Assembly: GCA_016182085.1 (NCBI GenBank)
Contig: JACOYB010000004.1
Coordinates: 339,923 to 403,922, forward strand
Length of the DNA stretch: 64,000 bases
DNA from: Candidatus Magasanikiibacteriota bacterium
Lineage (GTDB): Bacteria > Patescibacteriota > Patescibacteriia > Magasanikbacterales > GWA2-37-8
Direction of reading: 5' to 3'
Part shown: positions 16,450 to 54,114 of the stretch, piece after piece
How the letters are laid out: every line of letters starts with the position of its first letter
Position numbering within the stretch: position 1 is the first letter of the stretch
Notes under the pieces: generated by a model
Databases searched by the model: none
Told to the model about the DNA's origin: nothing
What the model saw: only the letters and a program-made list of their open reading frames with translations
Made by a program: the position numbers and the translations under genes

Positions 16450-16499
16450 GCCTGCACATTCTGCCGCGATTGGCAGAATTTTAAATTAGAAATACTTGT

Positions 16500-18305
16500 A
16501 TGAACATCCGCAACGTTGCCATCATCGCCCACGTAGACCACGGAAAGACCACACTTGTGGATGCTTTGTTGCGTCAATCCAAAACTAAATTATCCAAAGA
16601 ACAAGATAGTCAGATTACAATCATGGATAGTAATGATTTGGAACGTGAACGCGGTATTACGATTTTTTCCAAAAATGCTTCCGTAGAATGGAAAGATACA
16701 AAAATAAATATCATTGATACCCCGGGACACGCTGACTTTGGCGGGGAAGTAGAAAGAGTTTTGAAATTAGCTGATGGTTGTTTGTTGCTTGTAGACGCCA
16801 AAGAAGGCCCAATGCCTCAGACCAGATTTGTGCTCAAAAAAGCTTTGCAAATGGGGCATAAAGTAATTGTAGTTATAAATAAAATTGATAAACCAGGCGC
16901 CAGACCAAATTGGGTGCTAGACAAAACTTTTGATTTGTTTGTGGAACTTGGAGCCAGCGACGAAGTGGCTGAATTCCCAGTTATTTATGCTTCCGCCAAA
17001 AATGGTAAGGCCGGTATGGCACCGGATCTAGAAGCAATGACCGACATTACTCCTGTTTTTGATACGGTGTTAAAATTTATTCCTGAACCAAAAGTAGATC
17101 CAAATGCGCCGTTGCAAATACTCATTACTACTATTACCGGCGATAATTTTAAAGGTAGAATTGCGACTGGCAGAATCTATAACGGCACAATCAAAACTGG
17201 CCAAGATATAATGCATATAAATAGAGAAGGCGTAATGAAAAAATGCCGCGTTATGGCGCTCATGACATTTTTTGGTTTAGAAAGAATAGAAGTTCAAGAA
17301 GCGTTTGCCGGAGATGTGGTGGCTATTGCCGGTATTGGAGATATAAACATCGGTGAAACTGTGGCTGATGTTGCCAGCCCGGTTGCTTTGCCGCTTCTTA
17401 CCATAGAAGAACCAACTGTTAAAATGACTTTTAGTGTAAATAATTCTCCGTTTGCCGGAAAAGAAGGGGAATTTACCACTTCCAGACAGATTCGCGATAG
17501 ATTATTTAAAGAACTAGAAACAGACATGGCTCTAAAGGTGGCCGATGGTACCGAAGGCAATTGGATTGTTTCTGGCCGCGGTGAATTGCATTTAGCAATA
17601 CTTATCGAACGTCTGCGCCGAGAAGGATTTGAATTCCAGATTTCTCGTCCGCAAGTTATTATTAAAGAAGTTGATGGTCAAAAAATGACTCCTTATGAAC
17701 AAGTGTTTGTGGAAGTTCCCGAAGCTCATTCTGGAGCGGTAATCCAAAAGTTGGGCAGCCGCCACGGAGAATTACGAGAAATGAGAACCGAAAATGGCAT
17801 AGTTTTCTTAGAGTTTATTATTCCAACCCGCGGGTTGTTTGGTTATCGTACCGAATTTTTGACCGACACCAGAGGTTTGGGAATTATCAATACAATTTTT
17901 TATCAGTACATGCCGGATCCGGCCAATTGGCGCGAACGCGATCAAGGATCGCTTGTGGCTCACGAAACTGGTGTTACCAATTTGTATGGACTTCTTAATG
18001 TGCAAGACAGAGGAGTTATGTTTATTGGCCCTGGTGTGCAGGTTTACAAAGGCCAGGTAGTGGGTCAAAATGCGCGCAGTGAAGATATATCTGTAAATGT
18101 ATGTAAAGAAAAACAACTCTCTAACATGCGTTCCAAAGGCGATGGCGTGAGCGAACATTTTAACGCGCCAAAAGTTATGGATTTGGAAGAAGCGATGGAA
18201 TATATCGGTGATGATGAACTTGTAGAAATTACTCCAAAAAGCATTCGCATCAGAAAAGTTATCTTGGATGAAAGCGAAGCCAAACGAAAAGCACGGGGAA
18301 TGTAA
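16500..18305 (+). CDS. typA: translational GTPase TypA/BipA
   Basis: N-terminus MNIRNVAIIAHVDHGKTTLVDALL with G1-G5 motifs, an EF-G-like domain architecture, and a length of 601 aa. Confidence 0.92.
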   Translation: MNIRNVAIIAHVDHGKTTLVDALLRQSKTKLSKEQDSQITIMDSNDLERERGITIFSKNASVEWKDTKINIIDTPGHADFGGEVERVLKLADGCLLLVDAKEGPMPQTRFVLKKALQMGHKVIVVINKIDKPGARPNWVLDKTFDLFVELGASDEVAEFPVIYASAKNGKAGMAPDLEAMTDITPVFDTVLKFIPEPKVDPNAPLQILITTITGDNFKGRIATGRIYNGTIKTGQDIMHINREGVMKKCRVMALMTFFGLERIEVQEAFAGDVVAIAGIGDINIGETVADVASPVALPLLTIEEPTVKMTFSVNNSPFAGKEGEFTTSRQIRDRLFKELETDMALKVADGTEGNWIVSGRGELHLAILIERLRREGFEFQISRPQVIIKEVDGQKMTPYEQVFVEVPEAHSGAVIQKLGSRHGELREMRTENGIVFLEFIIPTRGLFGYRTEFLTDTRGLGIINTIFYQYMPDPANWRERDQGSLVAHETGVTNLYGLLNVQDRGVMFIGPGVQVYKGQVVGQNARSEDISVNVCKEKQLSNMRSKGDGVSEHFNAPKVMDLEEAMEYIGDDELVEITPKSIRIRKVILDESEAKRKARGM

Positions 18306-18414
18306 GATCAGTCCTTAAAGTTTATAAAGTTACGGATATTTTGACGGACAATTATTTTTTTGTTAAAGTTTATTAACTTGTGACTTTATAGACTTTTGAC
18401 TTTTCAAACTTCAA

Positions 18415-18486
18415 TGGCCCCATCGTCTATCAGTTAGGACACGACCTTCTCAAGGTTGAGAGACGGGTGCGATTCCCGTTGGGGCT
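18415..18486 (+). tRNA. tRNA-Glu (anticodon CTC)
   Basis: Acceptor GGCCCCA/TGGGGCT. The D-arm TCGTCTA...AGGACAC resembles bacterial tRNA-Glu. Anticodon stem CGACC/GGTTG with loop TTCTCAA; T-arm ACGGG-TGCGATT-CCCGT. The T-loop is slightly non-canonical. Confidence 0.7.
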
Positions 18487-18487
18487 A

Positions 18488-18524
18488 CAAATATAAAAGA
18501 CACCGTTTTGGTGTCTTTTATATT
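18488..18524. terminator. perfect palindromic (bidirectional) terminator hairpin
   Basis: AAATATAAAAGACACCGTTTTGGTGTCTTTTATATTT. The flanks extend into an imperfect 35-bp inverted repeat that includes an inverted copy of the tRNA T-arm (CAACGGGAATCGCAG, 18536-18550). Confidence 0.7.
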
Positions 18525-18526
18525 TG

Positions 18527-18660
18527 TTAGGGTCCACAACGGGAATCGCAGGGAAAGGGTGAAAACGGAAGTTTTCACTTGCTGAGGAAAGTCCACGAAA
18601 ACCCGAAGGTTTTCGTGAGAGCCCGCTTGCGGGCGAGCGATGCCCTAGTTGGGGCTACAA
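18527..18660 (+). ncRNA. candidate structured RNA / integration-scar segment: three perfect tetraloop hairpins plus a GAGGAAAGUCC motif, ending in a degenerate copy of the tRNA-Glu T-arm and 3' acceptor
   Basis: Hairpins GTGAAAAC-GGAA-GTTTTCAC (18558-18577), CACGAAAACC-CGAA-GGTTTTCGTG (18593-18616) and GCCCGC-TT-GCGGGC (18620-18633); GAGGAAAGTCC at 18584-18594. GTTGGGGCTACAA at 18647-18659 directly repeats the tRNA 3' end at 18477-18489. Confidence 0.35.
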
Positions 18661-18704
18661 CTCCACAAACCGAACACTTCTGGTCGTTTCTGGAGATAAG
18701 TTGA

Positions 18705-18735
18705 TAAAAGCCATCTTAGATGAGATGGCTTTTAT
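18705..18735 (+). terminator. terminator-like hairpin AAAAGCCATCTTAGATGAGATGGCTTTT
   Basis: Perfect 10-bp stem, 8-nt loop, followed by a T-rich tract. Confidence 0.55.
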
Positions 18736-18772
18736 GATTTATCGAAGAACGTCAATTCTATTATATGGCGAT

Positions 18773-18801
18773 CTTGACAAAACGCTCATTTTATGGTATT
18801 A
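18773..18801 (+). promoter_or_regulatory. near-consensus sigma-70 promoter with extended -10 (TTGACA, 17 nt, TGgTATTAT) driving the GC-rich membrane-protein ORF
   Basis: cTTGACAaaacgctcattttaTGgTATTAT, then a CCTCAGC...GCTGAGG leader hairpin and a GGAGG ribosome-binding site 6 nt before the ATG at 18870. Confidence 0.6.
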
Positions 18802-18869
18802 TCGACTGTTTCCTCAGCCTAGCAGCTTTATGGCTTTTAAGCTGAGGAAATCAATCCTCGGAGGTTCCC

Positions 18870-19505
18870 ATGGAAAACGTCTGGGTCGGTATCGTTCTGT
18901 TCGCTCTCGCTGCCACCTGCCTCGCTCTCGTCGAGATCGAGTCGGAGGGCAAGCACGGGTGGGCAGAGAAGTTGCCCACCTGGTACCGCACCAAGGGCCG
19001 ACTGGCGCGGATCTACGCCATCATCATGGCGAAGAAGCCGCTCACCGGCTATCACCTCTGGATGTTCTTCTTCCCGATCTTCTTCTTCCACTTCCAGTTC
19101 GCCTTCGCGTCCTGGTCGCTGGAGAAGGAGCTGCTCACCTGGGCGGTCTATTTCGCCTGGTGTGTGCTGTGGGACTACCACTGGTTCGTCATGAACCCCG
19201 CCTATAAGGGCAGGTTCAAGAAGGACTACGTCTGGTGGCATGCGAAGAGCGCTTGGGTGTTCGACTGGTTTCCGGTCGACTACCTGGTGGGCACGGGCTT
19301 CTCGTTCGTGCTCGCAGCCGGAGCAGCCTTGGTCGCTGGCAACAGCGGCGTGTTGCTCAACCACTTCTATGTGGTGGCGGGTTGGTGGGGCTATACGGCG
19401 ATCCTCAAGATCATCGTGAGTCCATACTACCATCGCTGGCATATCAAGATGCATCATTGGTCGCGTGACCAACGCGACCAAGTCGACATCTTCCACCAGG
19501 ACTAA
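18870..19505 (+). CDS. Trp-rich polytopic membrane protein (211 aa) of unknown function on a roughly 60% GC island
   Basis: Strong GC3 codon bias unlike the host. Four to five hydrophobic segments, W-rich (WDYHWFVMNPAYKGRFKKDYVWWHAKSAWVFDWFPVDY), GGAGG ribosome-binding site. The overlapping antisense ORFs look spurious. Confidence 0.6.
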   Translation: MENVWVGIVLFALAATCLALVEIESEGKHGWAEKLPTWYRTKGRLARIYAIIMAKKPLTGYHLWMFFFPIFFFHFQFAFASWSLEKELLTWAVYFAWCVLWDYHWFVMNPAYKGRFKKDYVWWHAKSAWVFDWFPVDYLVGTGFSFVLAAGAALVAGNSGVLLNHFYVVAGWWGYTAILKIIVSPYYHRWHIKMHHWSRDQRDQVDIFHQD

Positions 19506-19575
19506 ACCCTCACGGACGCGCCACCGCAAGGCGTCTGATGGGACACAAAGAAAGGAGCAGTACTTGCGGTCTCAT

Positions 19576-19609
19576 CAAAAACAACTTTCACCCGAAGGTT
19601 GTTTTTGTT
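19576..19609 (+). terminator. rho-independent terminator after the GC-rich membrane-protein gene
   Basis: AAAAACAACTTTCACCCGAAGGTTGTTTTTGTTT. Confidence 0.65.
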
Positions 19610-19929
19610 TATGTTATATTTGAGAGGTGGTAAGTAAGTAGACAGTAGAGAGGAGTCGTGATATTATGGCGGTAATATTAGTTTTTTATTACTACTTAAT
19701 AACATAGGTCCAAACACCAGCCACCTCTCCTTTATCTCCTGAACTAAGGTGTGCCAGAAAAAAGACAAGTAGGCTACACCAAAAACTAAAAAACCGTTCG
19801 CAAATTCCTCCTGCTTTACCTCTAAGTTAATATTTAGAAATAAAGCAGATGGGCGAACGGTTTTTTGTTTCCCACCTATTTTTTAAAGGTGGGCCGCGAA
19901 TGTACATGGTTCCTCCTGTGAACGGTTGT

Positions 19930-21072
19930 TCAGCGAACGGCGAGGGTGTTCCCGCCGAACTCGATGCCCAGCGGACTGATCACGACCTTCTTCTCGCTGC
20001 TCGCCTCGATGTGGCCGGCGACGTAGGCCTGGAACGGCTGGCCCTGCGCTGCCTCGAGCACCTTGCTCACGTCCTCGGGGGCAACGTAGATCGCGAAGCC
20101 CGCACCCATGTTGAAGGTGCTATAGGCTTCCTTGTCGCTGACCGGTCCGTGCTGCTGGATGAAGCGGAAGATCGGCGACGGGTTGGGCGGCAGCTCGTCG
20201 ATCACGTAGGTGAAGTTGCCCTCCGCGCGCATGAGCTTGCGCCAGCCGTGCCCCGTCACGTTGACGGCGTAGTGGATGTCGATCCCAGTCATCTGGCACG
20301 AACGGATGAGCTCGACATAGATGTGCGTCGGGTCGAGCAGCATCTCGCCGTACGTCTGGCGCATGTTGACCTGGGTGAGGTAGCCGTCCGGAAGCTTCTT
20401 GGCGATCTTGCGCGCGAGCGTGTATCCGTTGGCGTGGACTCCCGAGCTCGTGAACATCACGATGACGTCGCCGTCCTTGATGCGGCCCGGGTTGATGACC
20501 TTCTCCTTGGGTGCGATGATGCCCGTGGCCGAACCCGAGAGGACGGCCGTGAGCGGCAGGACGATACCCTGGAGCGTCGGTGTCTCGCCTCCGCCCCAGA
20601 CGCAGCCGGCCTGGAGGCAGGCGCGCTTCGTCCCCTCAACCAAGTCATGGCAGCGACGGTCGTTCTTGAACCAGTCCGAGTCGCCGACAGCGAGGTGCTG
20701 GGCGTAGGAGACCGGCAGCGCGCCGAGCGTGATCATGTCATTGACTGCCATCGCCACGTTGCACTGGGCAACCTGGTCGTAGAAGGTTCTCGTGCGGCCA
20801 GCGAAGCTGATGCCGTCCACGAGCTGGAGCATGGCGTCGGCCACCAAGTTCTTGGTGCCGAGGCCTTCCTCGACGTGGGCGATGTAGCCCCAGGGCGTCT
20901 CGATGAGGAACGCGCTCTCACCACGGCTCCACCCGACCACCTTGAATCCGAACCGGTCGGCACACCGATCCGTATCCCGGGCGGCAAGCTGCGCCACCCG
21001 CTTGAACGGATCCATGGTGTCGTAGTTAACGCCGGTAGCGGCGTAGGTCAGACCCTTTTTGGAGTCACTCAT
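19930..21072 (-). CDS. purM: PurM-family protein (phosphoribosylformylglycinamidine cyclo-ligase / AIR synthase-like), divergent, about 62% GC
   Basis: Blocks alignable to E. coli PurM: GVNYDTMDPFKR (GVDIDAGNALVER), EGLGTK (DGVGTK), VAMAVNDMITLGALP (VAMCVNDLVVQGAEP), CLQAGCVWGGGET (CLQSGCSLVGGET), DGDVIVMFTSSGVHANGYTLARKI ([24 protein letters not shown]) and YSTFNMGAGFAIYV (YRTFNCGVGMIIAL). The start is taken at MSDSKKG (ATG 21070-21072) because the upstream in-frame extension is AT-rich host-like sequence. The gene is convergent with the membrane-protein ORF. Confidence 0.65.
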   Translation of the reverse strand: MSDSKKGLTYAATGVNYDTMDPFKRVAQLAARDTDRCADRFGFKVVGWSRGESAFLIETPWGYIAHVEEGLGTKNLVADAMLQLVDGISFAGRTRTFYDQVAQCNVAMAVNDMITLGALPVSYAQHLAVGDSDWFKNDRRCHDLVEGTKRACLQAGCVWGGGETPTLQGIVLPLTAVLSGSATGIIAPKEKVINPGRIKDGDVIVMFTSSGVHANGYTLARKIAKKLPDGYLTQVNMRQTYGEMLLDPTHIYVELIRSCQMTGIDIHYAVNVTGHGWRKLMRAEGNFTYVIDELPPNPSPIFRFIQQHGPVSDKEAYSTFNMGAGFAIYVAPEDVSKVLEAAQGQPFQAYVAGHIEASSEKKVVISPLGIEFGGNTLAVR

Positions 21073-21259
21073 TGATGTTTTCTCCCGAAAAGTTGTTGGG
21101 TTTCGTAAGCAAAAACTATCATAAAGGGAGAAATAATTCAAGGGTTTTTAGAAACTGCGTAGTTTGCAATTTTGAATATTTTATTTATTATTTTTGACAT
21201 CCTACAAAAAACCTGTCATTCTAATTTTATCAACAATTGTAGAAAGAAGTGGGGGAACC

Positions 21260-21727
21260 ATGAAACGCACACTGCTGTATCAAATATGGATTCTGTTTTT
21301 GATCTACACCGTGTGGTCTTTGGCCAGTGAGGCAGTGTTTACCGGGGTGGCAGATATAATCCGGGATTATCAGGCGGGTAGACCGTTCAACTCTCATCTG
21401 CCTTGTCGTACCAGTCTTTGGAGTATCCTGGTCTATGGCGTTCCGGCCAGCTTGGGTTTTACTTTCGTTGACAGGCTGGTACCTGGATTCTTCAAGTGGC
21501 ACTGGGCTAAGCGGGGATTCATCTATACCATCGGCACATTTGCCTCTGAATACGCTTGGGGTGATTTTCTGGAATGGCTCACAGGGAGTTGTCCGTGGCA
21601 ATACAGAGATTCGTCAATTGCCCTGCTGCGCTATATCAATCCCGAGTACTTTCTGTTGTGGTTCATGTTCGGCTTTTCTTTGGAGTGGATTAGGGTAAAA
21701 CTCCTTCCAAGGATAATCGGCATCTAG
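21260..21727 (+). CDS. hypothetical polytopic membrane protein (about 156 aa), intermediate GC (about 49%)
   Basis: MKRTLLYQIWILFLIYTVWSLA... with several hydrophobic segments. A GGGGGAA ribosome-binding site precedes the ATG at 21260. The tracker's 21194 start would cross AT-rich intergenic sequence. Confidence 0.5.
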   Translation: MKRTLLYQIWILFLIYTVWSLASEAVFTGVADIIRDYQAGRPFNSHLPCRTSLWSILVYGVPASLGFTFVDRLVPGFFKWHWAKRGFIYTIGTFASEYAWGDFLEWLTGSCPWQYRDSSIALLRYINPEYFLLWFMFGFSLEWIRVKLLPRIIGI

Positions 21728-21756
21728 GCCTAAATCTTGGAATGATAAGGAGCACC

Positions 21757-21793
21757 CCCGCGTATGTTAGTGATACGCGGGTTGTTGTTTTTA
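21757..21793 (+). terminator. rho-independent terminator
   Basis: CCCCCGCGTATGTTAGTGATACGCGGG followed by TTGTTGTTTTT. Confidence 0.7.
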
Positions 21794-21885
21794 TAATTAG
21801 ATTTTATTTTTTAAATAAAGTAATCCATTGACAATTACCTAAAAAATTGTTAGCCTAATTTTTACAAAACCACAAGGAGTTCCTA

Positions 21886-22827
21886 ATGGAAATGGAGCCG
21901 ATCAGCGACTGGGAAGGTCGCATCCTCGGCGGCCGTTACCAGCTCAAAGAGTGGATTCATAAAGGCAGTATGGGCCATGTGTTCAAGGCTTGGGACTGCC
22001 AAAACCAATTCTGGGTGGTAGTTAAGGCTATTGATAAAAAACACGAACTGGTCCAACGGCTAAAACGTGAAGCGGATACGCTCAGGCGTCTCAACGACCC
22101 GCGGATCGTGCGTCTGCTTGACTGTGGGATAGATAAGGATCTTTATTTTCTAGTGTTGGAATACCTGGAAGGTAAAGATTTGGGGATGTGTATTGATACG
22201 CACGATCTCGTCTTGACCCAAGAGTTTTGCATTTCCATAGGGGTGCAAATACTGGAAGGTGTTGAGCCAATGCACACCGCCGGAGTAGTGCATCGCGATA
22301 TCAAACCCGCAAATGTGTTCCTGGTTTCAGGTCAAGTAAAAATTCTTGACTTTGGTTTGGTCAAGCTTGTGAACCGCCCCGGTCCGCGCCGGAGAATGCT
22401 GACCAACTATCCGGTTGTGATTGGTACGCTGGGGTATCTTTCGCCGGAACAAATGCGAGGTGAAGAGGTTGATTGCCGTTCCGATTTGTATGCGTGCGGT
22501 ATTGTGCTCTACGAACTCCTTACGGGCGAGCTGCCTTTTTACAAAACCGGAGAGCTTGAGTATAAGGCGTGGAAAAAAGCTGCGGCGCGAGAATACTGGG
22601 AGCGGCCATTACGTCCGTTTCCAAGCATCTTTCGCGTTCCGAAGCGTGTTCAGGAAGTTGTCTGGAAAGCGCTGGCAGTTGATCCGGCCAATCGTTATCA
22701 GACAGCCCAAGAGATGCGCCTCGCGCTCTTGGCAGCGAGACCGTTCTCGTTTAAGCGGTTTGTGAAGGAGGCTGTTGGAACAATTGGAGGAAAAACCAGA
22801 AATGCTTGGAGGGCAATCTGGTCTTAG
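21886..22827 (+). CDS. Hanks-type Ser/Thr protein kinase (catalytic domain only, 313 aa), about 50% GC
   Basis: GSMGHVF glycine loop, VVVKAI, HRDIKPANVFL catalytic loop, DFGLVK, GTLGYLSPEQ activation segment. Confidence 0.8.
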   Translation: MEMEPISDWEGRILGGRYQLKEWIHKGSMGHVFKAWDCQNQFWVVVKAIDKKHELVQRLKREADTLRRLNDPRIVRLLDCGIDKDLYFLVLEYLEGKDLGMCIDTHDLVLTQEFCISIGVQILEGVEPMHTAGVVHRDIKPANVFLVSGQVKILDFGLVKLVNRPGPRRRMLTNYPVVIGTLGYLSPEQMRGEEVDCRSDLYACGIVLYELLTGELPFYKTGELEYKAWKKAAAREYWERPLRPFPSIFRVPKRVQEVVWKALAVDPANRYQTAQEMRLALLAARPFSFKRFVKEAVGTIGGKTRNAWRAIWS

Positions 22828-22925
22828 TCGTGGCCCCCTGTATCTGCAGGTGGCCTTTGCATTTTAGATTGACCAACAGTACTTTTTTTTGTATACTATT
22901 TTTTCAAAGTTACTACATTAAATCT

Positions 22926-23972
22926 ATGATTTCCGGATTCTGGAAACAACTGAAAAAACCCATTTTTGTACTCGCGCCGATGGCCAATGTGACCGACGCT
23001 GCTTTTCGGCAGATTATTGCCAAATACGGCAAACCCGATGTGATGTTTACCGAATTTGTTTCTTGCGACGGATTAGTATCCCGAGGCAAAGAAAAATTAT
23101 TGGTAGATTTTATGTATACCGAAGCCGAACGCCCGATCGTGGCCCAAATTTTTGGTTCCAAACCGGAAAATTTTTATAAAACAGCTCTCTTAATTCAAGA
23201 GCTTGGTTTTGACGGGATAGATATAAATATGGGTTGTCCGGATAGAAATGTAGAAAAACAAGGTGCCGGCGCTTGCTTGATGAAAAATCCGCTGTTGGCG
23301 CAAGAAATTATAAAAGCTACTCAGCGCGGCGCGGGAAAGCTGCCAGTCTCTGTAAAAACTCGTATCGGTTATAACAAAAATACATTGTCCGATTGGCTGC
23401 CGTATCTGCTTGAAACCGAACTAGCAGCAATTACGGTTCACGCCCGTACCCGAAAAGAAATGTCTCTAGTGCCAGCCAACTGGGAGACAGTGCGTGATGC
23501 CGTAGCAATTCGTGATAAATATGATAGTTCAGAAAACAGGACTTTAATTTTGGGAAACGGCGATGTAAAAAATTTCGCCGAAGCAAATGAAAGAGTAAAA
23601 GAAACAGGTGCTGACGGCGTAATGATCGGCCGCGGTATTTTTGGCAATCCATGGTTGTTCGCCAATTGTCATTCTGAGCGGAGCAAAGCGGAGTCGAAGA
23701 ATCCCTTACACTCGGGTTTAAGGGATCCCTCCATTACAGTCGGGATGACATCGAGTGTTGAAGAAAAATTACGAGTAATGGTAGAACATACATATCTGTT
23801 TGAAAAAATTTTGGGGGAGCATAAAAATTTTGATATCATGAAAAAACATTACAAGGCCTATGTGAATGGTTTTGACGGCGCTAAAGAATTGCGAATCAAG
23901 CTGATGGAAGGCGCGAAAACCGCGGCGGATGTAGAGAAAATTATAACGGAATTCTTACAAAATTTGGATTGA
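22926..23972 (+). CDS. dus: tRNA-dihydrouridine synthase (Dus family) carrying an in-frame palindromic-element insertion
   Basis: FVLAPMANVTDAAFRQII, GIDINMGCP and GRGIFGNPWLF motifs. Start taken at the ATG at 22926 (MISGFWKQ); the tracker's 22806 start is an upstream extension. Residues about 246-275 (ANCHSERSKAESKNPLHSGLRDPSITVGMT) are encoded by a repeat-family copy. Confidence 0.85.
   Translation: MISGFWKQLKKPIFVLAPMANVTDAAFRQIIAKYGKPDVMFTEFVSCDGLVSRGKEKLLVDFMYTEAERPIVAQIFGSKPENFYKTALLIQELGFDGIDINMGCPDRNVEKQGAGACLMKNPLLAQEIIKATQRGAGKLPVSVKTRIGYNKNTLSDWLPYLLETELAAITVHARTRKEMSLVPANWETVRDAVAIRDKYDSSENRTLILGNGDVKNFAEANERVKETGADGVMIGRGIFGNPWLFANCHSERSKAESKNPLHSGLRDPSITVGMTSSVEEKLRVMVEHTYLFEKILGEHKNFDIMKKHYKAYVNGFDGAKELRIKLMEGAKTAADVEKIITEFLQNLD
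23666..23750. repeat. palindromic TGTCATyCyGAG...GGGATGACA element, copy A, inside the dus coding sequence and in frame
   Basis: TTGTCATTCTGAGCGGAGCAAAGCGGAGTCGAAGAATCCCTTACACTCGGGTTTAAGGGATCCCTCCATTACAGTCGGGATGACA. Confidence 0.7.
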
Positions 23973-24013
23973 TTTTTTTGTTTGTTGAGACTACTATAGT
24001 GTATAGTGTCCAA

Positions 24014-24106
24014 TTGTCATTCCGACCAAAGTGGAGGAATCCCTTAAACATAGCTTATTGTAGTAATTAAGTGTAAGGGATCCCTCGGCTACGCTCGGGA
24101 TGACAA
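24014..24106. repeat. palindromic element, copy B (intergenic, overlaps the annotated start of the PLD-family gene)
   Basis: TTGTCATTCCGACCAAAGTGGAGGAATCCCTTAAAC...TAAGGGATCCCTCGGCTACGCTCGGGATGACAA. Confidence 0.7.
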
Positions 24107-25215
24107 ACCATATGGAATTCAGTCATAAATTTTACAACACAACCGCTTTGGCCTGGGAAGGAATGCGCCAAGCAATTTTGGATGCCAAAAGTTCTGTGTA
24201 TTGGGAGATTTTTGCCCTTGTGGATGATTTAGCCGGTAAGCCGTTTATAGACTTGTTGTGCGCCAAGGCTCAGGCTGGACTAGACGTAAAACTTATTACC
24301 GACGCGATCGGCAGTTTTTATTTATCCAAAGATGCTATAAACCGTCTCAAAAAATCCGGTGTTAAATTTTTTATGTTCAACAACCTTCGTCCGGAACTGG
24401 CGTTGCAAAATTGGCTGCGCCGTGTCTGGCATCGCACGCACCGTAAAGTGCTTATTATAGATAGAGAAGTTGTATTTATTGGCGGTGTAAACGTGGCGCA
24501 ATATGCCGCTCTTTGGCATGATTTGCATTTGCGCTTGACCGGTAAAATTGTAATACCAATTTTATTTAGTTTTGCCAAGTCATATATTAAAGCCGGCGGG
24601 GATAAAAAAGATGTGGCCGATTTGCTTCGTCCGAAAATTTTTCCCAACCTCGAAGAAATCAAAGAAAAAATAAATTTTATTTTTCATTCCCCCTGGCGCG
24701 ATACGGTACGCTCGCCGTTTAAAAATTTTTACAAACAAGCGCTGGGTACGGCCAAAGAAAAGTTTAATCTACTCACGCCATACTATGTGCCGGACCGTCA
24801 TTTTTTGGAGTTAGTATCTCAGGCCAAAAAACGAGGCGTGAATGTTAATATTATGATTCCTTGGAGAACCGACGAACGCGTCATGCGTTATTTTGCCTCT
24901 ATGCTGTATGGTGTTTCATCCAAAGCCGGAGCTGTATTTTATTTTTTAAAGAATATGAATCACGGCAAAGCCGTAAGCGTGGATAATAAATTAGGCATGG
25001 TTGGCAGCGCCAATTTAACGCCGCGCAGTTTTTATATTAATCACGAAGCAGGCGTTACATTTTCAGATGAGCACATGGTGGAAGAATTAAATAATATTTT
25101 GGATGATTGGAAAAAAGAAGCTATGCCGCTTTCGGAAATAAACATAGGAAAGAAAGTAGGATGGACAAAGAGATTTAAAGACTGGTGGATGAATAAAATA
25201 CGCGATTATGTCTAA
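24100..25215 (+). CDS. phospholipase D superfamily protein with two HKD motifs (cardiolipin synthase-like)
   Basis: HRKVLIIDREVVFIGGVNV and NHGKAVSVDNKLGMVGSANL fit HxKxxxxD...GSxN twice. The true start may be the ATG at 24112 (MEFSHKF), since 24100-24106 belongs to repeat copy B. Confidence 0.7.
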   Translation: MTNHMEFSHKFYNTTALAWEGMRQAILDAKSSVYWEIFALVDDLAGKPFIDLLCAKAQAGLDVKLITDAIGSFYLSKDAINRLKKSGVKFFMFNNLRPELALQNWLRRVWHRTHRKVLIIDREVVFIGGVNVAQYAALWHDLHLRLTGKIVIPILFSFAKSYIKAGGDKKDVADLLRPKIFPNLEEIKEKINFIFHSPWRDTVRSPFKNFYKQALGTAKEKFNLLTPYYVPDRHFLELVSQAKKRGVNVNIMIPWRTDERVMRYFASMLYGVSSKAGAVFYFLKNMNHGKAVSVDNKLGMVGSANLTPRSFYINHEAGVTFSDEHMVEELNNILDDWKKEAMPLSEINIGKKVGWTKRFKDWWMNKIRDYV

Positions 25216-26449
25216 AAACTTCGGAGCATTTAACATGCCGCTGGCCGAGCGAATGCGCCCTAAAAATTTTAATGAGTTTGTCGGGCAATCAGATATCGTC
25301 GGGCAGGGAAAATTACTAAGAAAGCTGATAGAAAATGATCAGCTTTCTTCTATTATTTTTTGGGGGCCGCCCGGAGTAGGCAAGACAACCCTGGCGCAGA
25401 TTATGGCCGCGCAAACCAAATCTCGGTTTGTTTTGCTCTCCGCGGTTTCAAGTGGTAAGGAAGAATTAATGAAAATAATCAAGGAAGCAAAGAAAGTTTT
25501 GGAAGAACAAAATCAAAAAACTATTTTATTTATAGACGAAATTCATAGGTGGAACAAAGCCCAGCAGGACGCGTTATTGCCAGTGGTAGAAAAGGGGATA
25601 GTAATTCTTATTGGCGCCACCACCGAAAATCCGTCTTTTGAAATTATTGGCGCGCTTCTGTCTCGCTCCCGGGTTTTTATTTTAAAATATTTAAGCGAAG
25701 AAGATGTTGTCGCGATTATTAAAAATGCGTTAAAAGATAAAGAAAACGGTTTAGGAAATTTGAAAATCAATATAGAAAAGAAAACGATTGAACTTCTGGC
25801 TGAACTTGCCGGAGGGGATGCTAGAACCGCTTTAAATGGTTTGGAGTTGGCTGTAAAGGCTAAAGGCAGCAATAAAATAATTACTATTTCAAACGAAGAT
25901 ATAAAAGAAGCGTTGCAGCGCACGCATTTGGTCTTTGATAAACAAGGCGAGGAATTTTATAATCTAATTTCCGCGCTGCATAAATCCATGCGGGGTTCCA
26001 ATGCCGACGCGGCTTTGTATTGGCTGGCGCGCATGCTGGAGGGTGGGGCGGATCCGTTATATATTGCCCGCCGCGTAGTGCGGTTTGCCAGTGAAGATAT
26101 TGGCATGGCCAACAGCGAAGCCTTGGTGCAGGCAAATGCTGCTTTTGAAGCGTGTGATAGGCTGGGAATGCCCGAATGCAGTGTGCATTTGGCTCAGGCG
26201 GTGGTCTATTGCGCCAAATCTACTAAATCTAATTTGTTGTATCGGGCCTATGGAGAGGCGGCTAAAGACGCGCGAAACACATCGCATTTGGGCGTGCCAA
26301 TTCACTTGCGCAATGCGCCAACCAAATTTATGAAAAGTATCGGCTATGGCAAAGATTATAAATATTCTCCGGATTTTGATTATAAAGAGAGTCAGGATTA
26401 TCTTCCGCCGGAGTTAAAAGAAAAGAAGTATTTAACCAAAAATTCATAG
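25208..26449 (+). CDS. rarA: replication-associated recombination protein A (AAA+ ATPase RarA/MgsA)
   Basis: FVGQSDIVGQGKLLRKLIENDQLSSIIFWGPPGVGKTTLA Walker A, the IDEIHRWNKAQQDALLP sensor region, and a C-terminal MgsA helical domain. Overlaps the upstream gene by 8 nt. Confidence 0.85.
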   Translation: MSKNFGAFNMPLAERMRPKNFNEFVGQSDIVGQGKLLRKLIENDQLSSIIFWGPPGVGKTTLAQIMAAQTKSRFVLLSAVSSGKEELMKIIKEAKKVLEEQNQKTILFIDEIHRWNKAQQDALLPVVEKGIVILIGATTENPSFEIIGALLSRSRVFILKYLSEEDVVAIIKNALKDKENGLGNLKINIEKKTIELLAELAGGDARTALNGLELAVKAKGSNKIITISNEDIKEALQRTHLVFDKQGEEFYNLISALHKSMRGSNADAALYWLARMLEGGADPLYIARRVVRFASEDIGMANSEALVQANAAFEACDRLGMPECSVHLAQAVVYCAKSTKSNLLYRAYGEAAKDARNTSHLGVPIHLRNAPTKFMKSIGYGKDYKYSPDFDYKESQDYLPPELKEKKYLTKNS

Positions 26450-26551
26450 CTATCTTGACAATAGTTTATTTAGTGTCATAGTATACTGCGTTGTCAGACA
26501 AAGCTCAGAGATCCACAGACCCGGGTTCAATCCGGGAGAAGAGAGTTTGTC

Positions 26552-26953
26552 ATGTTGAAAGTCAAATGGCGTTCTGATGATGGTCAGGGCGAAGTTTGCC
26601 CTGATTCTGGCGGTCCTGTCACCCCCGACATGGTTGAAGAAATGGTCAGGGCGGCCATTGCCTTCGTGGCCAACCTTCGGTTCGTGGCCAAGCCTCAGAA
26701 GGTTTCAAAGGTTTCAGCCGTCTTTTTCATGGTGAGCAAGCCTCAAGACGTCATGGAAAAGCAGCGTAAGGTACTGCGGCAAAACAAGAAGCTGGGTACA
26801 GCTGATCCAGAGCCTTACCCTGTCTACGGATGGATTGAAGTCGCCGCGGATTCCAACCTGGCGAACATCATGTCCAAGTTCGCCCATGAGAAGGATCGGG
26901 TTGAACGTAGCACGGTATTTACCACCTTTATGATCCAGGCCATGAAGGTGTAG
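26552..26953 (+). CDS. hypothetical protein (133 aa) on a roughly 52% GC segment
   Basis: ORF with GC3-rich codons, preceded by TTGACA / TAGTAT promoter-like boxes, a tRNA T-arm-like hairpin CCCGGGTTCAATCCGGG and a purine-rich ribosome-binding site. No family recognised. Confidence 0.45.
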   Translation: MLKVKWRSDDGQGEVCPDSGGPVTPDMVEEMVRAAIAFVANLRFVAKPQKVSKVSAVFFMVSKPQDVMEKQRKVLRQNKKLGTADPEPYPVYGWIEVAADSNLANIMSKFAHEKDRVERSTVFTTFMIQAMKV

Positions 26954-27098
26954 AAAATCCTGGATAAGCATAATTTGTGTAGGAGGTCTGCAGCGTGCGG
27001 GCCAGAGCGGTTGGGCACGCGTGTTGTCTGGGAACGGTATCGTGCCGTTCCCTATACTAACAATTATTTGTACCTTGTAAAAATAATTGAGGAATAAA

Positions 27099-27128
27099 AA
27101 ATCACCTAACTTAGGTGGTTTTTTATTG
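27099..27128. terminator. bidirectional terminator hairpin AAAAAATCACCTAACTTAGGTGGTTTTTT
   Basis: Stem flanked by an A-run and a T-run. Confidence 0.7.
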
Positions 27129-27198
27129 GCGGCAATTTACTGGACTTTTTTGATGCGGGTGATAGAATTTATAGATAACTATTTTACCGTTAATTATT

Positions 27199-28434
27199 AT
27201 GAGTCATAATGATCCGTTTGTTGGAGCTTTAAAGCAGCTAGAAAAACTAAAAAATTTAATAAATTTGGAGGAAAATATCTATCAGCAATTACAATCGCCG
27301 CAAAAATTTTTGGAAGTATCTATTCCCGTAAAAATGGATAATGGGCAGATACGAGTTTTTAAAGGCTTTCGTTCTCAGTACAGCAACGCGCGCGGACCGT
27401 ATAAAGGCGGTATCCGTTTCCACCCGCAAGTAAATGAATCCGAAGTAAAAGCGCTTAGTATGTGGATGGCTCTAAAAACGGCCGTGGTGGGTATCCCGCT
27501 TGGCGGCGGTAAAGGCGGGGTAATTGTAAATCCAAAAGAGTTATCGGCAAGTGAGTTAGAAAAATTATCTAGGGGCTATATTCAAGCGATTCATAAACTA
27601 ATCGGCCCGAATGTGGATGTGCCGGCACCGGACGTGTATACAGATCCCAAAATAATGGGCTGGATGCTTGACGAGTATGAAAAATTAACCGGCGGGGGCA
27701 ATCCTGGGGTAATTACCGGCAAACCGCTTAGTATTGGCGGTTCCAAAGCGCGCAGCTATTCCACGGCCCAGGGCGGTTTTTATGTGCTGCAAGAGGCGGT
27801 GAAAAAAATGAGTTTGCATAATGTGCGCGTAGCGGTTCAGGGTTTTGGCAATGCTGGCGCTACCATGGCAAATATTCTGGCAAAAAATGGCTATAAAGTT
27901 GTAGCGGTTTCAGATTCTAAAGGCGGAATATATAATAGTGAAGGCTTGGACATGACAACGCTTTCGGTTCATAAAGAAAAAACCGGTTCGGTGGCTAGCT
28001 TTTTTGGTGCGCAAAACATTGATGGAAATATTTTATTCCAGGAAGTTGATATTTTGGTTTTGGCGGCATTGGAAAACAGCGTAACCCTAGAAAACGCCGA
28101 ACAAATTAAGGCCCAATTGATTATAGAGTTAGCCAACGGTCCGATAACCCACGAGGCGGATGAAATTCTGGATAAAGCTGGAAAAGTTGTAGTGCCTGAT
28201 ATTTTAGCCAATGCCGGCGGGGTGGTCGTGAGTTATTTTGAGCAAGTGCAAAACGCCTATAATTATTATTGGGAAGAAAAAGATGTTTTGGAAAAATTGG
28301 CAAAAATTATGACCCAGTCTTTTGACGAGGTTTGGAGAAAGAAAGAAAAATATAATACGAATATGCGTACCGGCGCGTATGCGCTCGCAGTAGAACGAAT
28401 TGGGCAGGCAATGAAAGATAGGGGTTGGATATAA
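27199..28434 (+). CDS. gdhA: glutamate dehydrogenase (Glu/Leu/Phe/Val dehydrogenase family)
   Basis: KGGIRFHP, GGGKGGV catalytic glycine-rich region, and a Rossmann motif VAVQGFGNAGA. Confidence 0.88.
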   Translation: MSHNDPFVGALKQLEKLKNLINLEENIYQQLQSPQKFLEVSIPVKMDNGQIRVFKGFRSQYSNARGPYKGGIRFHPQVNESEVKALSMWMALKTAVVGIPLGGGKGGVIVNPKELSASELEKLSRGYIQAIHKLIGPNVDVPAPDVYTDPKIMGWMLDEYEKLTGGGNPGVITGKPLSIGGSKARSYSTAQGGFYVLQEAVKKMSLHNVRVAVQGFGNAGATMANILAKNGYKVVAVSDSKGGIYNSEGLDMTTLSVHKEKTGSVASFFGAQNIDGNILFQEVDILVLAALENSVTLENAEQIKAQLIIELANGPITHEADEILDKAGKVVVPDILANAGGVVVSYFEQVQNAYNYYWEEKDVLEKLAKIMTQSFDEVWRKKEKYNTNMRTGAYALAVERIGQAMKDRGWI

Positions 28435-28477
28435 ATAACTTGTGGCTAAAAAGTAGCTATGCTATAATTTAACCTAT

Positions 28478-29206
28478 ATGTTAAGCTATTTTTGGGCGAC
28501 TTATTTGTATCAACCGTTATTTAACGCCCTGATTTGGATTTATTTAAATATTGCCGAGCGGAATATGGGGTGGGCTGTAGTGTGGCTCACTATTTTTTTG
28601 CGTATCATTCTGTTGCCGCTTACCATCATTTCCGAACGTGACGCGGCTAAACAAAAAGACGTGGAAGCGCAAGCAATTCAAGCGGCCAAAGCCTTTAAAA
28701 ATGATCTGGTAGCCCAAAAAGAAGAAATCAGGAAAATAATGAAAAAGCACCATGTGTCTCCCTGGGCAAAAGTGGTGGTATTAGGTTTTCAAGTGCTCGT
28801 TTTTTTGCTTTTGTACCAGGTCTTTATCCGCGGCATAACTGGCGAAAGAATTATCAAACTATTGTATCCGTGGATTGATTTCCCGGGGAAGATTAACGTG
28901 GATTTTTACGGATTTAATATCGGCAATTATCACGATACATTTTGGGCGGGAATTGTGGCCATTTATCTTTTCTTTTCTATTTATTTGGGAGAATTTTCCA
29001 GTCGCGGCAAGAAAGATCAGTCAAGAATTACGTTTTTATTCCTATTTCCCTTGTTTACCTTTATAGTGCTGTGGTTTTTGCCGATGGTAAAATCATTATT
29101 TATTTTGACAACCATGATATTTTCTGATATAATTTCTATTATCAGAAGAATGATTTTTCCGGAGAAAAAGGCGGAAGCGCCGGCCAAAACAGCTGCTAAA
29201 AAGTAA
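28478..29206 (+). CDS. yidC: membrane protein insertase YidC/Oxa1 family (short form)
   Basis: LYQPLFNAL...MGWAVVWLTIFLRIILLPLTI and MKKHHVSPWAKVVVLGFQVLVFLLLYQVF match the conserved YidC TM2/TM3 blocks. Confidence 0.75.
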   Translation: MLSYFWATYLYQPLFNALIWIYLNIAERNMGWAVVWLTIFLRIILLPLTIISERDAAKQKDVEAQAIQAAKAFKNDLVAQKEEIRKIMKKHHVSPWAKVVVLGFQVLVFLLLYQVFIRGITGERIIKLLYPWIDFPGKINVDFYGFNIGNYHDTFWAGIVAIYLFFSIYLGEFSSRGKKDQSRITFLFLFPLFTFIVLWFLPMVKSLFILTTMIFSDIISIIRRMIFPEKKAEAPAKTAAKK

Positions 29207-29220
29207 AATTAAAATAACCA

Positions 29221-29278
29221 ATGTCATCCTGAACAAGTTTTCGGGATCTAGATGCCGAAAACTTGTTCGGCATGACAA
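29221..29278. repeat. palindromic element, copy C
   Basis: ATGTCATCCTGAACAAGTTTTCGGGATCTAGATGCCGAAAACTTGTTCGGCATGACAA; arms are near-perfect reverse complements. Confidence 0.7.
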
Positions 29279-29293
29279 TTAACAGTAAAATCT

Positions 29294-29860
29294 ATGTCCG
29301 GAGATTCAATGGATAAATTAATGTATTCCTTTGTAATGGACGATGTTTTGAAAGGCCTGTTTATCAGTGTTCCGCCCGGATACGTGGCTTGTGTGTATGA
29401 TTTAGGCAGGGGAGTCTTAAAAAAAGTATTAACACCGGGACTTCATCTTAAAATTCCTTTTTGGCAAAAAGCAAAATTATTTAATACCCAGACGCTAGAA
29501 TATAGCATTTCCAGACAATTCAACGCTGAGCATGAAAGAGCGTTGGGTGATATTCCAATTGCGGCCGGTACAAAAGACGGCCAGCGAGTAGGGGTAGAAG
29601 GCACAATTCTGTTGCGTTTAGATGTTCATCAAGTACCTTCTATTTGGCAAACCATTGGTGAGGATTTTGTGGCCAAAATTGTCCGCCCGACTATTCGCAG
29701 CCGTGTACGTATGGTATTTAGCAAGTTTGATTATCAAGAAATAGTGGGAGCAAAAAGAGACGCGGTGGAAATGGAGCTTAAAAACGAGTTGGAACGCATA
29801 TTTTATGCCCGCGGTATTTATGTGGAAAATGTACTCTTAAGCGAGATAGGTAAGATTTAA
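29294..29860 (+). CDS. SPFH/band-7 domain protein (stomatin/HflC-like)
   Basis: PGYVACVYDLGRGVLKKVLTPGLHLKIPFWQKAKLFNTQ followed by an SPFH core. Confidence 0.65.
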   Translation: MSGDSMDKLMYSFVMDDVLKGLFISVPPGYVACVYDLGRGVLKKVLTPGLHLKIPFWQKAKLFNTQTLEYSISRQFNAEHERALGDIPIAAGTKDGQRVGVEGTILLRLDVHQVPSIWQTIGEDFVAKIVRPTIRSRVRMVFSKFDYQEIVGAKRDAVEMELKNELERIFYARGIYVENVLLSEIGKI

Positions 29861-45089: not shown

Positions 45090-45175
45090 TTGTCATTCTG
45101 AGCAAAGCGAAGAATCTCTGTCCAGCTGATCAAGATAGTACTGATAGAGATCCTTCATTTCATTCAGGATGACAA
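45090..45175. repeat. palindromic element, copy D
   Basis: TTGTCATTCTGAGCAAAGCGAAGAATCTCTGTCC...GAGATCCTTCATTTCATTCAGGATGACAA; about 29-nt arms are imperfect reverse complements. Confidence 0.7.
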
Positions 45176-53965: not shown

Positions 53966-54114
53966 TGTCATCCCGAGCGAGCCTCGCGGCGACGCCCGCC
54001 CGTACCGAACGTGTACGTTCGGGCGGGAGGGATCTCTGTCTGTCATTCCCATCGCAATGGGAATCCAGTATCCGGTCAGATTGTGTGGATTCCCGCTTTC
54101 GGCGGGAATGACAA
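53966..54114. repeat. palindromic elements, tandem copies E1 and E2
   Basis: CTGTCATCCCGAGCGAGCCTCGCGG...GGGAGGGATCTCTGTC, then TGTCATTCCCATCGCAATGGGAATCC...GGATTCCCGCTTTCGGCGGGAATGACAA; both are GC-rich hairpin-formers. Confidence 0.65.

Follow-up and report, generated by a model that had tools for sequence, protein, structure and literature searches.

Selfish palindromic repeats that are read in frame are known from textbooks as a peculiarity of Rickettsia. REPINs, which Bertels and Rainey reportedly described in 2011 as two inverted REP units with a short spacer that form a long hairpin and are dispersed as a unit, are classically GTAG-tagged, extragenic, and associated with the RAYT transposase, an IS200/IS605-type tyrosine transposase. 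Rickettsia palindromic elements (RPEs) are approximately 100-150 bp in length, and nearly half of them lie in the ORFs of many unrelated genes (Ogata et al. 2000, via PMC10969869). The CGTC-tagged REPs carry an unpaired terminal tag, CGTC, with TGTC or CCTC accepted as variants, a stem of 8-9 bp that starts with A-T, a loop of 4-5 nt, and a short unpaired tail that is mostly CCA (Di Nocera et al. 2013, PMC3733652). Inverted (head-to-head) dimers predominate and are located mostly downstream of coding regions, and some copies are intragenic, including in RNA-modification enzymes (tRNA pseudouridine synthases) (PMC3733652). According to the same authors, the superfamily takes in the Neisseria dRS3 and the R. 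conorii RPE-4 and RPE-6 repeats; it was found in five phyla, CPR/Patescibacteria and Cyanobacteria not among them, and the survey found no dedicated transposase (PMC3733652). The recB genes of Xanthomonas campestris and X. oryzae carry different REPs at about the same position (PMC3733652). Long in-frame inverted repeats also occur in Nematomorpha, within genes of the mitochondrion, some at positions common between species, and a parasitic or conversion-maintained nature has been discussed for them (PMC6649704).

The window analyzed here, a 64-kb stretch of DNA taken from a metagenome-assembled genome (MAG), contains a palindromic repeat within dus, the gene for tRNA-dihydrouridine synthase. 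The dus gene (22926..23972, plus strand) is an intact ORF of 348 aa, and its product is 100% identical to an NCBI Candidatus Magasanikbacteria protein. Pfam PF01207 (Dus) is matched in a single unbroken stretch over profile positions 2-302 (E 1.5e-64), and PDB entry 1vhn is matched with an E-value of 4.9e-33. Apart from the insert, dus is intact, and purifying selection acts on it, as shown by a backbone pN/pS of ~0.16-0.20. An AlphaFold (AF2) model has an overall pLDDT of 89 and superposes on solved Dus structures in Foldseek (1vhn, TMt 0.86; 3b0v, TMt 0.79). The insert is the sole low-pLDDT stretch (39-56), and no structure is predicted within it. It is positioned in the linker that joins the FMN TIM barrel to the helical domain, whose first helix starts at residue 278 of the model. 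The model and its superposition thus place the insert at a loop site compatible with an otherwise canonical Dus fold, as is the case for RPEs, and the preliminary description of this DNA was right to expect a loop.

The element itself (23667..23750, plus strand) is 84 nt long and is composed of two TGTC-tagged REP units in inverted orientation, with the core TGTCATTCTGAG...GTCGGGATGACA. It had been described as 85 bp at 23666-23750, directly following the GNPWLF motif. The repeat is present as described, except that the additional base is a flanking T and that the element begins two codons past GNPWLF; the A and N that opened the reported peptide (codons 246-247) belong to the flank. The element is exactly 28 codons, 248-275 of dus, encoding the peptide CHSERSKAESKNPLHSGLRDPSITVGMT, and the stretch NPLHPNLRDPSTTVGMTSSVAEK is found in the translation of the insert-bearing window Dus. 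Of the six frames in which it could be read, a single one is open, and this is the frame in use, which agrees with the proposal of a frame-preserving insertion.

The left REP unit (23667..23701, plus strand) has the tag TGTC, a stem of ATTCTGAG/CGAAGAAT with 6/8 positions paired and a tandem G.A mismatch, a loop, and then the tail CCC. A 10-nt tandem duplication (AGCGGAGCAA followed by AGCGGAGTCG) has enlarged this loop to 16 nt. The right unit (23721..23750, minus strand) has the same tag and tail, a stem of ATCCCGAC/GGAGGGAT with 6/8 positions paired, and the loop TGTAAT. The predicted RNA fold of the dus copy reaches -28.4 kcal/mol with a z-score of -2.2, compared to -4.6 to -8.6 for the complete intergenic copies. 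This hairpin is weak and may be decaying.

Both termini of the repeat are visible in the DNA and paralogs occupy nearby intergenic spacers, which bears out the palindromic repeat first noted in dus. The motif TGTCATYCYGA (≤1 mismatch) occurs 14 times in the window, where 2.09 +/- 1.41 are expected and 0/100 shuffles reach 14, and paired termini yield five complete copies and one partial copy. Relatives' loci used for comparison are given L-numbers; L001 is the closest relative, with 86% nucleotide identity. The paralog at 24015..24105 lies between the dus stop codon and the next (PLD-like) gene, belongs to the same subfamily as the dus copy (77% identity, 27 gap positions), folds at -41.5 kcal/mol (z -7.8), and is without a counterpart in L001, L002, and L115. 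The intergenic copy at 29222..29277 is a near-perfect hairpin of 56 nt (z -8.6) with 7/8 positions paired in its left unit and 8/8 in its right, and is absent from L001. The intergenic copy at 45091..45174 (84 nt, z -5.4) is closed in all six frames and has full-length relatives on Planktothrix plasmids. A repeat in a published Planktothrix MITE/REP paper was considered as the same family and rejected, as the paper describes a different repeat. At 53966..54040, a partial or degenerate copy retains the left TGTC unit only (z -1.4) and abuts the intergenic copy at 54041..54113, which has the TGTC tag, 8/8 stems (ATTCCCAT/ATGGGAAT and ATTCCCGC/GCGGGAAT), the loops CGCA (4 nt) and CGAAA (5 nt), the tail CCA, and a z-score of -4.6. 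An arm of the 54041 copy is 93-97% identical to repeats of Neisseria, Azospirillum, and Sphingopyxis.

Copies of the family are 56-99 nt in length and have inverted termini of at least 12 nt, which are the REP hairpins themselves; in size, for which MITEs span 50-300 bp, as well as in termini and absence of coding capacity, they correspond to MITEs. A relaxed two-terminus search of 878 kb gave nine matches versus one in reversed-sequence controls. Coding copies number one of the five to six in the window, that of dus, and none of the three to four in 814 kb of other CPR loci. Rfam returned no family, only three tRNAs, and there was no match in a phage collection. A literature search with terminal-motif strings returned primers only. 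Inspection by eye of the ORFs in two window-specific segments found no obvious transposase. No target-site duplication is visible at the dus site, and none is callable at 24015 or 29222 in the filled/empty comparison with L001 because the spacers are too diverged.

By the described features, the dus element would be a TGTC-tagged REP dimer of the CGTC-tagged superfamily, with a partial fit of the dus subfamily. The TGTC tag is present in 10/10 half-units of the five complete window copies, as well as in the dus copies of L092, L102, L115, and L116. Every unit has A-T at its first stem positions (AT...AT), and stem lengths lie within 8-9 bp. The conserved tandem G.A mismatch limits pairing in the dus stems, making the dus subfamily a weaker fit. 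Compared to the published 4-5 nt, loops outside the 54041 copy are 3-6 nt, with the left unit of dus as the exception noted above. The tail is CCA in the 54041 copy and in L005 and CTC or CTA in the 45091 and 29222 copies, whereas the dus subfamily has CCC in place of CCA. In all complete copies, the two units form an inverted dimer whose tags face outward, and the copies at 24015, 29222, and 54041 are located in short spacers after genes, as described for the superfamily, which also has occasional intragenic copies. The 54041 copy has every published feature of a CGTC-tagged REP.

The comparison to RPEs in the preliminary description holds in part. Given the tag, stem, and dimer features of every half-element and the published tag-level assignment of RPE-4 and RPE-6, it is better than an analogy. 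As with RPEs, a palindromic repeat is read in frame within a housekeeping gene at a fold-compatible site and adds a few tens of residues. Unlike RPEs, which are in frame in many unrelated genes and have about half of their copies coding, the family has only the dus copy coding in the window, in a different phylum, and that copy appears to have come as a linker cassette rather than as a plain insertion. When 1.84 billion representatives were scanned exhaustively in HMMER with a 32-aa peptide, no further host protein came up. Its sole match, P0121, is spurious, being a repeat protein with ~36% identity summed over repeats. Relatives of the family are read in frame within MmeI of Planktothrix and ileS of Sphingopyxis. 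The copies also have the architecture of a REPIN, two inverted REPs and a spacer in one long hairpin, but the dus element differs from the classical form in being TGTC-tagged and intragenic. The Xanthomonas recB REPs resemble it in that different REPs occupy one position of an orthologous gene; the recB case involves two species, whereas here 19 of 120 homologs and at least nine interiors are involved, along with unrelated hairpin families across the radiation. The Nematomorpha repeats are likewise in frame in conserved genes. Those repeats are perfect, code for conserved residues in both arms, and do not form a dispersed family, whereas the dus palindrome is imperfect, lies in a dispensable linker, and is a member of a dispersed family.

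The dus site is empty in L001-L007, where the span is 31 aa as opposed to 53 aa in the window. The ortholog alignment thus confirms an insertion, though not a simple one, and the element is a lineage-specific, frame-keeping gain between the TIM barrel and the helical domain. A clean pair is provided by L115 (filled) and L114 (empty), in which the element is the only difference. The preliminary description had ~28 aa added in frame. The frame is kept, but the net gain is +22 aa relative to the 12-codon linker of the nearest relative, which was probably replaced in the window, or +26 aa relative to a short linker type. L116 and L092, which have the 28-aa segment, carry the full repeat in their DNA, and orthologs with the 28-aa segment but without the repeat, which had been named as the contrary case, were not encountered. 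Filled alleles are scattered among empty ones in a linker-masked, unbootstrapped NJ tree.

The codons on either side of the element are informative about its route. The left flank (23661..23666, plus strand; GCC AAT, A246 N247) is that of the short linker type; nothing in the linker of the nearest relative corresponds to it. The right flank (23751..23762, plus strand; TCG AGT GTT GAA, S S V E) agrees with the flanks of filled alleles elsewhere and with a widely found short linker, xxxx-P/S-[ST]-[IV]-x-EKL, and not with L001. The remainder of the window dus is L001-like, at 85% identity upstream of the linker and 95% downstream, while the linker flanks match L092, L102, and L088. Many CPR lineages have the short linker type regardless of the element. 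The "E9" linkers, which are short (AGKTPTIEE is one), were considered as excision footprints; this was rejected, since linkers of that type are widely found in CPR lineages that lack the element.

The element is 92.9% identical to that of L116 and 89.3% to that of L092, whereas the backbones are only 76-78% identical. Third-position identity to L116/L092 is 0.82 in the element versus 0.50-0.55 in the backbone (binomial p ~4e-4 to 8e-4), and pS is 0.10-0.21 in the element versus 0.60-0.67 upstream, a 3-6-fold lower synonymous divergence in the cassette. A cassette so much more alike than its backbones points to spread by recombination. Nucleotide-level constraint, or gene conversion from paralogs, could likewise explain the low synonymous divergence. 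Conversion is disfavored because the dus copies of the window, L116, and L092 have a derived indel in common: the 10-nt duplication and the collapsed loop are absent from the intergenic paralogs, which have an AT-rich, stop-rich central loop that the dus copies lack. The data lean toward the window copy nesting among foreign dus copies rather than among the paralogs of its own genome. In a per-segment nearest-neighbor analysis, the mosaic signal was no more than mild, and no donor allele for the cassette emerged. Within the flanking 5' region, neither L092 nor L116 is closer to the window, so a recombination tract, if there was one, would have to be very short or to have eroded since.

These observations bear on a direct jump of the element into the lineage's own linker, with later flank deletions or substitutions restoring the frame and the likeness of the flanks to filled alleles arising by chance. 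The family appears from sequence comparison to have expanded recently in the window's lineage, which would suit such a jump: of the five indels found over 14.6 kb of synteny with L001, three are copies of the family that only the window has. The right flank TCG AGT GTT also weakly resembles TCG CAG AGT ATT of L001. Nevertheless, a manual base count of the alignment finds the right flank matching L092 and L102 at 12/15 nt and L001 at 5/15, and the duplication and loop collapse are common to the dus copies of three lineages. Those copies are 89-93% alike, against 77% with 27 gaps for the paralog 350 nt away, and the short linker type exists without the element in many CPR lineages. Transposition in situ is therefore improbable.

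Rather, a non-coding, selfish, REPIN-like doublet that came to be read in frame in the Dus hinge would have arrived as a cassette by recombination and been kept through a selection filter, a reading to which we assign a probability of roughly 75%. The likeliest route would be homologous recombination in which the partner was a foreign dus allele with the element already in place, the conserved codons on both sides (GNPWLF and EKLRVMVEHT) acting as homology arms. The element, together with a few flanking codons of the short linker type common elsewhere in CPR, would have replaced the lineage's own 12-codon linker, and it would not have jumped there directly. Selection would act as a filter whose survivors have a length that is a multiple of three and a used frame free of stops. 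The element would be translated as a floppy 28-residue extension of the Dus hinge, presumably tolerated because this hinge is permissive for length.

On passing the linker, third-position identity to L001 goes up from 0.653 to 0.899 (Fisher p 4e-5), in line with cassette replacement and horizontal spread. Identity to L001 also changes wherever an element boundary is crossed (87.2, 95.0, 90.6, and 96.3% in successive segments). These boundary changes could be recombination or a strain-chimeric assembly, and the window is derived from a MAG, in which a chimeric join at a repeat could place the element in dus. The same cassette is nonetheless found in frame in assemblies made independently of this one and from other samples: one in Logan (L116) and two of Hainich groundwater (L089 and L092). 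An irrelevant repeat in a dus pseudogene fits poorly with the intact ORF, the continuous Pfam match, the low backbone pN/pS, and the confidently predicted fold. Artefact and pseudogene together are considered very improbable.

The position of the element in other filled alleles raises the matter of targeting. A TGTC-tagged element begins at the same codon (LF-x-x-|CH) in all 19 filled alleles among the 120 homologs, with at least nine different interiors, in a protein-based sample that is ascertained on intact ORFs. Their right junctions vary (MT|P, MT|TP, MT|TYVP, MT|VG), which suggests separate events. In L083, a distant Dus, the same codon is occupied by another member of the family, whose right end is in a different phase. 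A first scan for in-ORF inverted repeats gave 91 matches, mostly chance; tightened criteria left nine, of which four are in dus, all in the linker, in ~9% of the sequence. A metagenome scan for the pattern GNPW[LF]FxxCH returned 33 loci, only five of them Dus. Active, site-specific targeting, in which palindromes insert or home by gene conversion at one dus-linker position through recognition of local DNA or a resident element, would account for the common codon and the linker enrichment, and the transfer of short flanks along with the element resembles homing co-conversion. On the other hand, no nuclease is encoded within 84 nt, and the flanks of intergenic copies show no common target motif. 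With only ~4 variable codons in the short linker, viable sites are already strongly restricted by selection alone. Interior turnover at one old insertion, by conversion through common termini, would yield the same left junction, and the sampling of intact ORFs also weighs against targeting. Active targeting is thus regarded as unlikely, though less so than a direct jump in situ.

Palindromic inserts from unrelated families recur at the Dus domain boundary in many CPR lineages, with z-scores down to -12 compared to -0.33 +/- 1.15 for controls, and unrelated in-frame hairpins are present in other CPR Dus linkers and in a topoisomerase I loop. This recurrence could mean that the hairpin or peptide was recruited for a function kept by selection, such as translation pausing at the domain boundary or a hinge that alters the tRNA substrate range, and the pN/pS of the element is 0.15 in one pair (window versus L116). 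The other two pairs give 1.06 and 0.54, and most orthologs, the closest included, are without any insert. In addition, the interiors are unrelated in sequence, the dus-copy hairpin is eroded, and the insert is unstructured in the AF2 model. Recruitment for a function is accordingly a very unlikely account. It is conceivable, though doubtful, that the Dus hinge and the topoisomerase I loop are CPR "landing pads," where unrelated REP-type palindromes repeatedly colonize the same codon and pass between species as short cassettes, in a targeted or homing-like manner rather than by random insertion and selection.

The preliminary description considered an in-frame palindromic insertion unusual for this lineage. 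Intragenic REPs are documented in several phyla, making the finding less unusual than was supposed, but our literature search found no report of them for CPR. In-frame TGTC/CGTC-tagged REP dimers now extend to the Candidate Phyla Radiation, a huge and largely uncultured group with tiny genomes. The repeated occupation of one hinge of one enzyme by many different palindromes, and the proposed movement of the occupied hinge between species as a short cassette, can both be tested in existing metagenomes. Caution is warranted in that linker length variation and "novel" peptides in CPR can be repeat DNA read by the ribosome. If the landing-pad reading is true, selfish palindromes would regularly generate differences in the length of linkers and loops in reduced genomes.

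The window comes from a Candidatus Magasanikbacteria (CPR/Patescibacteria) genome, and its Dus matches an NCBI record of that name at 100% identity. Its ORF (22926-23972) translates intact into 348 aa, matches Pfam Dus in a single continuous stretch (E 1.5e-64) and matches solved Dus structures at the sequence level. The palindromic core of the element, TGTCATTCTGAG...GTCGGGATGACA, lies at 23667-23750, and its 84 nt are exactly codons 248-275, encoding CHSERSKAESKNPLHSGLRDPSITVGMT. The preliminary description of a palindromic repeat in frame within dus was borne out and its interpretation is essentially right; the segment, reported as 85 bp directly after GNPWLF, is present, but its core is 84 nt and begins two codons (A246, N247) further on. 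Of the six reading frames of this copy, only the one in use is open. Compared with two other alleles, the backbone has a pN/pS of ~0.16-0.20, and the host gene is therefore under purifying selection.

An AlphaFold2 model built from a 45-sequence alignment was confident overall (pLDDT 89, pTM 0.88), with the exception of the insert, where the ten-residue block means were 56 (251-260), 39 (261-270) and 69 (271-280) and pLDDT fell below 50 at residues 258-273. The model superposes on the solved structures 1vhn (TMt 0.86) and 3b0v, a Thermus Dus-tRNA complex (TMt 0.79). On one side of the insert the barrel ends, and on the other the C-terminal domain opens with its first helix (H278-296). Within Dus, the element is inserted at the hinge that joins the two domains.

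The linker was compared across 80 orthologous loci fetched from species-representative genomes. The GIFGNPW-to-VEHT span is 31 aa in L001-L007, the nearest relatives at 69-85% aa identity, versus 53 aa in the window. Relative to L001, whose gene is 86% identical in nt, 36 nt encoding NKAVESQSISLQ give way to 102 nt consisting of GCC AAT, the element, and TCG AGT GTT GAA, a net gain of 66 nt. The acquisition was not a plain insertion and reads as a linker replacement; an earlier claim had ~28 aa added by insertion, whereas the net gain over L001 is 22 aa. The flanks of the window cassette match those of four element-bearing alleles (L092, L102, L088 and L116) and also the short linker xxxx-P/S-[ST]-[IVL]-x-EKL, which is present without an element in many CPR lineages. 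One pair of alleles is clean: the empty L114 reads ...GCC GGC AAA ACA CCG... versus ...GCC GGC [TGT CAT ... AGG ATG] ACA CCG... in the filled L115.

The window element is 92.9% identical to that of L116 (a Logan assembly) and 89.3% to that of L092 (a Hainich assembly), with backbones at 76-78%. Identity at third codon positions is 0.82 in the element and 0.50-0.55 in the backbone (binomial p about 4e-4 to 8e-4), and synonymous divergence (pS) is 0.10-0.21 and 0.60-0.67, respectively. By sequence, the window cassette is much nearer to the L116 and L092 cassettes than the host genes are to one another. By contrast, the genome's own paralog, 350 nt downstream, is just 77% identical to the dus copy, with 27 gap positions. 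The dus copies of the window, L116 and L092 have two features that are missing in the paralogs, a derived duplication of 10 nt and a central loop that has collapsed, so these three come from a single source. Upstream of the linker the window and L001 have a third-position identity of 0.653, which jumps to 0.899 on the downstream side (Fisher p 4e-5). In an unbootstrapped neighbour-joining tree with the linker masked, the filled alleles are scattered, each beside empty ones. The simplest reading is that the element-bearing linker cassette passes between dus alleles by homologous recombination, with the near-invariant codons flanking the linker as the probable sites of exchange. No donor of the window cassette was found among the compared alleles.

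In this lineage the family is of recent date: of the five indels across 14.6 kb syntenic with L001, three are family copies found in the window only. Among other CPR loci the family is rare, with 3-4 copies in an unbiased 814-kb sample. From 15201 to 29835, identity to L001 is 87.2% up to the dus element, 95.0% from there to the copy at 24015, 90.6% to the copy at 29222 and 96.3% beyond it. The copies where identity changes may be sites of past recombination or of joins in the assembly. A strain-chimeric assembly could account for changes at every element boundary, but the same in-frame cassette was recovered in independent assemblies, which argues against a pure artefact. Two more segments are window-specific relative to L001, 15779-16419 and the GC-rich (0.48-0.54) 18662-19771, which holds a 211-aa tryptophan-rich, membrane-like ORF at 18870-19505; no obvious transposase was seen in either.

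The terminal motif of the family has 14 matches in the window versus 2.1 expected, a count attained in 0 of 100 shuffles. Five copies in the window are complete, with paired termini (starting at 23667, 24015, 29222, 45091 and 54041), and one, at 53966, is partial. At 53966-54113, within one short spacer, the partial copy and a complete copy belong to different subfamilies and directly abut in a BIME-like cluster. The right terminus of the 24015 copy (GGGATGACAA, 24100-24114) provides a PLD-like gene with an ATG that is in frame and lies four codons ahead of the ortholog start (MTNH-MEFSHKF versus MEF/MDL in L001, L002 and L115). No Rfam family matches the element. A survey of prokaryotic REPs (PMC3733652) defines a CGTC-tagged superfamily with stems of 8-9 bp that almost invariably begin with A-T, loops of 4-5 nt and a short tail, mostly CCA. 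Its members are predominantly head-to-head dimers, lie mostly downstream of genes, lack a dedicated transposase, and include Neisseria dRS3 and R. conorii RPE-6 and RPE-4 (PMC3733652). All parsed half-elements open with TGTC then AT, and every copy is an inverted dimer whose tags point outward. The copy at 54041 agrees with the CGTC-REP description throughout (stems 8/8 paired, loops of 4 and 5 nt, CCA tail); the fit is looser for the dus subfamily, with 6/8 stems carrying a conserved tandem G.A mismatch, a CCC tail and a left loop enlarged to 16 nt. Given the tags and the dimer layout, the best description of the element is a pair of TGTC-tagged REP units arranged as an inverted, REPIN-like dimer.

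The likeness to Rickettsia palindromic elements (RPEs), as judged from the tags, is apt at the level of repeat class (TGTC/CGTC-tagged REPs). The RPE-like behaviour first proposed holds at the dus locus and for the repeat class, but is unsupported genome-wide; only one of the 5-6 window copies, that in dus, is coding. An index-free HMMER search of 1.84 billion representative proteins clustered at 50% identity, with this short query, found no genuine second host protein for the element peptide.

The element has relatives in more than one phylum. Full-length matches (72-77% identity) occur on Planktothrix agardhii plasmids. One gene there, of MmeI-type restriction-modification (L118, from NZ_LR882964.1, 503-5185 of the locus, minus strand; also L119, AP017994.1), encodes 1,560 aa and contains at least three full TGTC...GACA elements and stray right-terminus fragments, all of them read in frame, as VILSETKDLSGVV..RDSSQAQND, with the terminus in its other open phase. 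The gene adjoins DISARM drmD. On Sphingopyxis indica plasmid pMC4 (locus L120, ~351-428), an annotated ileS CDS of 1,023 aa contains a complete element (CGTCATCCCCGCGAAAGCGGGGATCCAG...CTGGATTCCCGCTTTCGCGGGAATGACA), one end of which has a CGTC tag.

A strict scan of 878 kb found nine in-ORF palindromes, four in the dus linker. Two of the five non-dus members are in topoisomerase I (topA), in frame at one identical loop in two CPR lineages (L075, 1020-1077, and L079, 1626-1669, both minus strand; ...ANIN[insert]F.MPDF). They are near-perfect, with 28/25 and 21/21 paired (z -7.1 and -8.8, respectively). L026 and L059 carry other inserts at that loop, and at least four orthologs (L023, L032, L045 and L064; 47-aa span) are empty there. 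In L008 (2968-3031), a DnaX-like (DNA polymerase III tau/gamma) ORF also reads through a 27/24-paired palindrome in frame (...SSVEERKREPSPPQRRGQGE...).

Among the 120 closest homologs, 19 have a TGTC-tagged element at the identical Dus codon (LF-x-x|CH...); the interiors of these elements are of at least nine unrelated kinds, and their right junctions differ. The distant Dus L083 has yet another family member at this codon. Many other CPR dus genes (L032/L035, L025/L029/L064, L036, L048/L068, L063, L071, L033 and L052) carry large, unrelated, strongly hairpin-forming inserts at the same hinge (z -4.6 to -12.0; 102 control coding windows, -0.33 +/- 1.15), some with common peptides, such as NNFL[EL]KI[FL]S and EDTS[ND]FELPEGPTPVLGGRAQGR. 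Family copies also directly follow the dus stop in L013 (1588-1681), L012 (about 6973-7005) and the window, and one lies 7 nt before the dus start in L117 (about 1340-1376). The C-terminal extensions of homologs P0051 and P0076 run into an element (TNCHPESPFSG; ILPAHPESRGIPPPI). P0079, P0104 and P0119 have a second, ~20-aa insertion after KYSK (YGDTNLEY..RVGG; alignment A1 columns about 95-120), and P0104 has a third, FGNFSRGGVTPPLRD. The recurrence at the hinge may reflect selection where the permissive stretch is very short, or it may be a real target preference.

The element is a member of an already described repeat class, with intragenic copies known in several phyla; no report of such intragenic repeats in CPR was found in the literature. 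The contribution of the present analysis is the cassette-type acquisition, as read from these alleles, together with the finding that the Dus hinge is occupied repeatedly.
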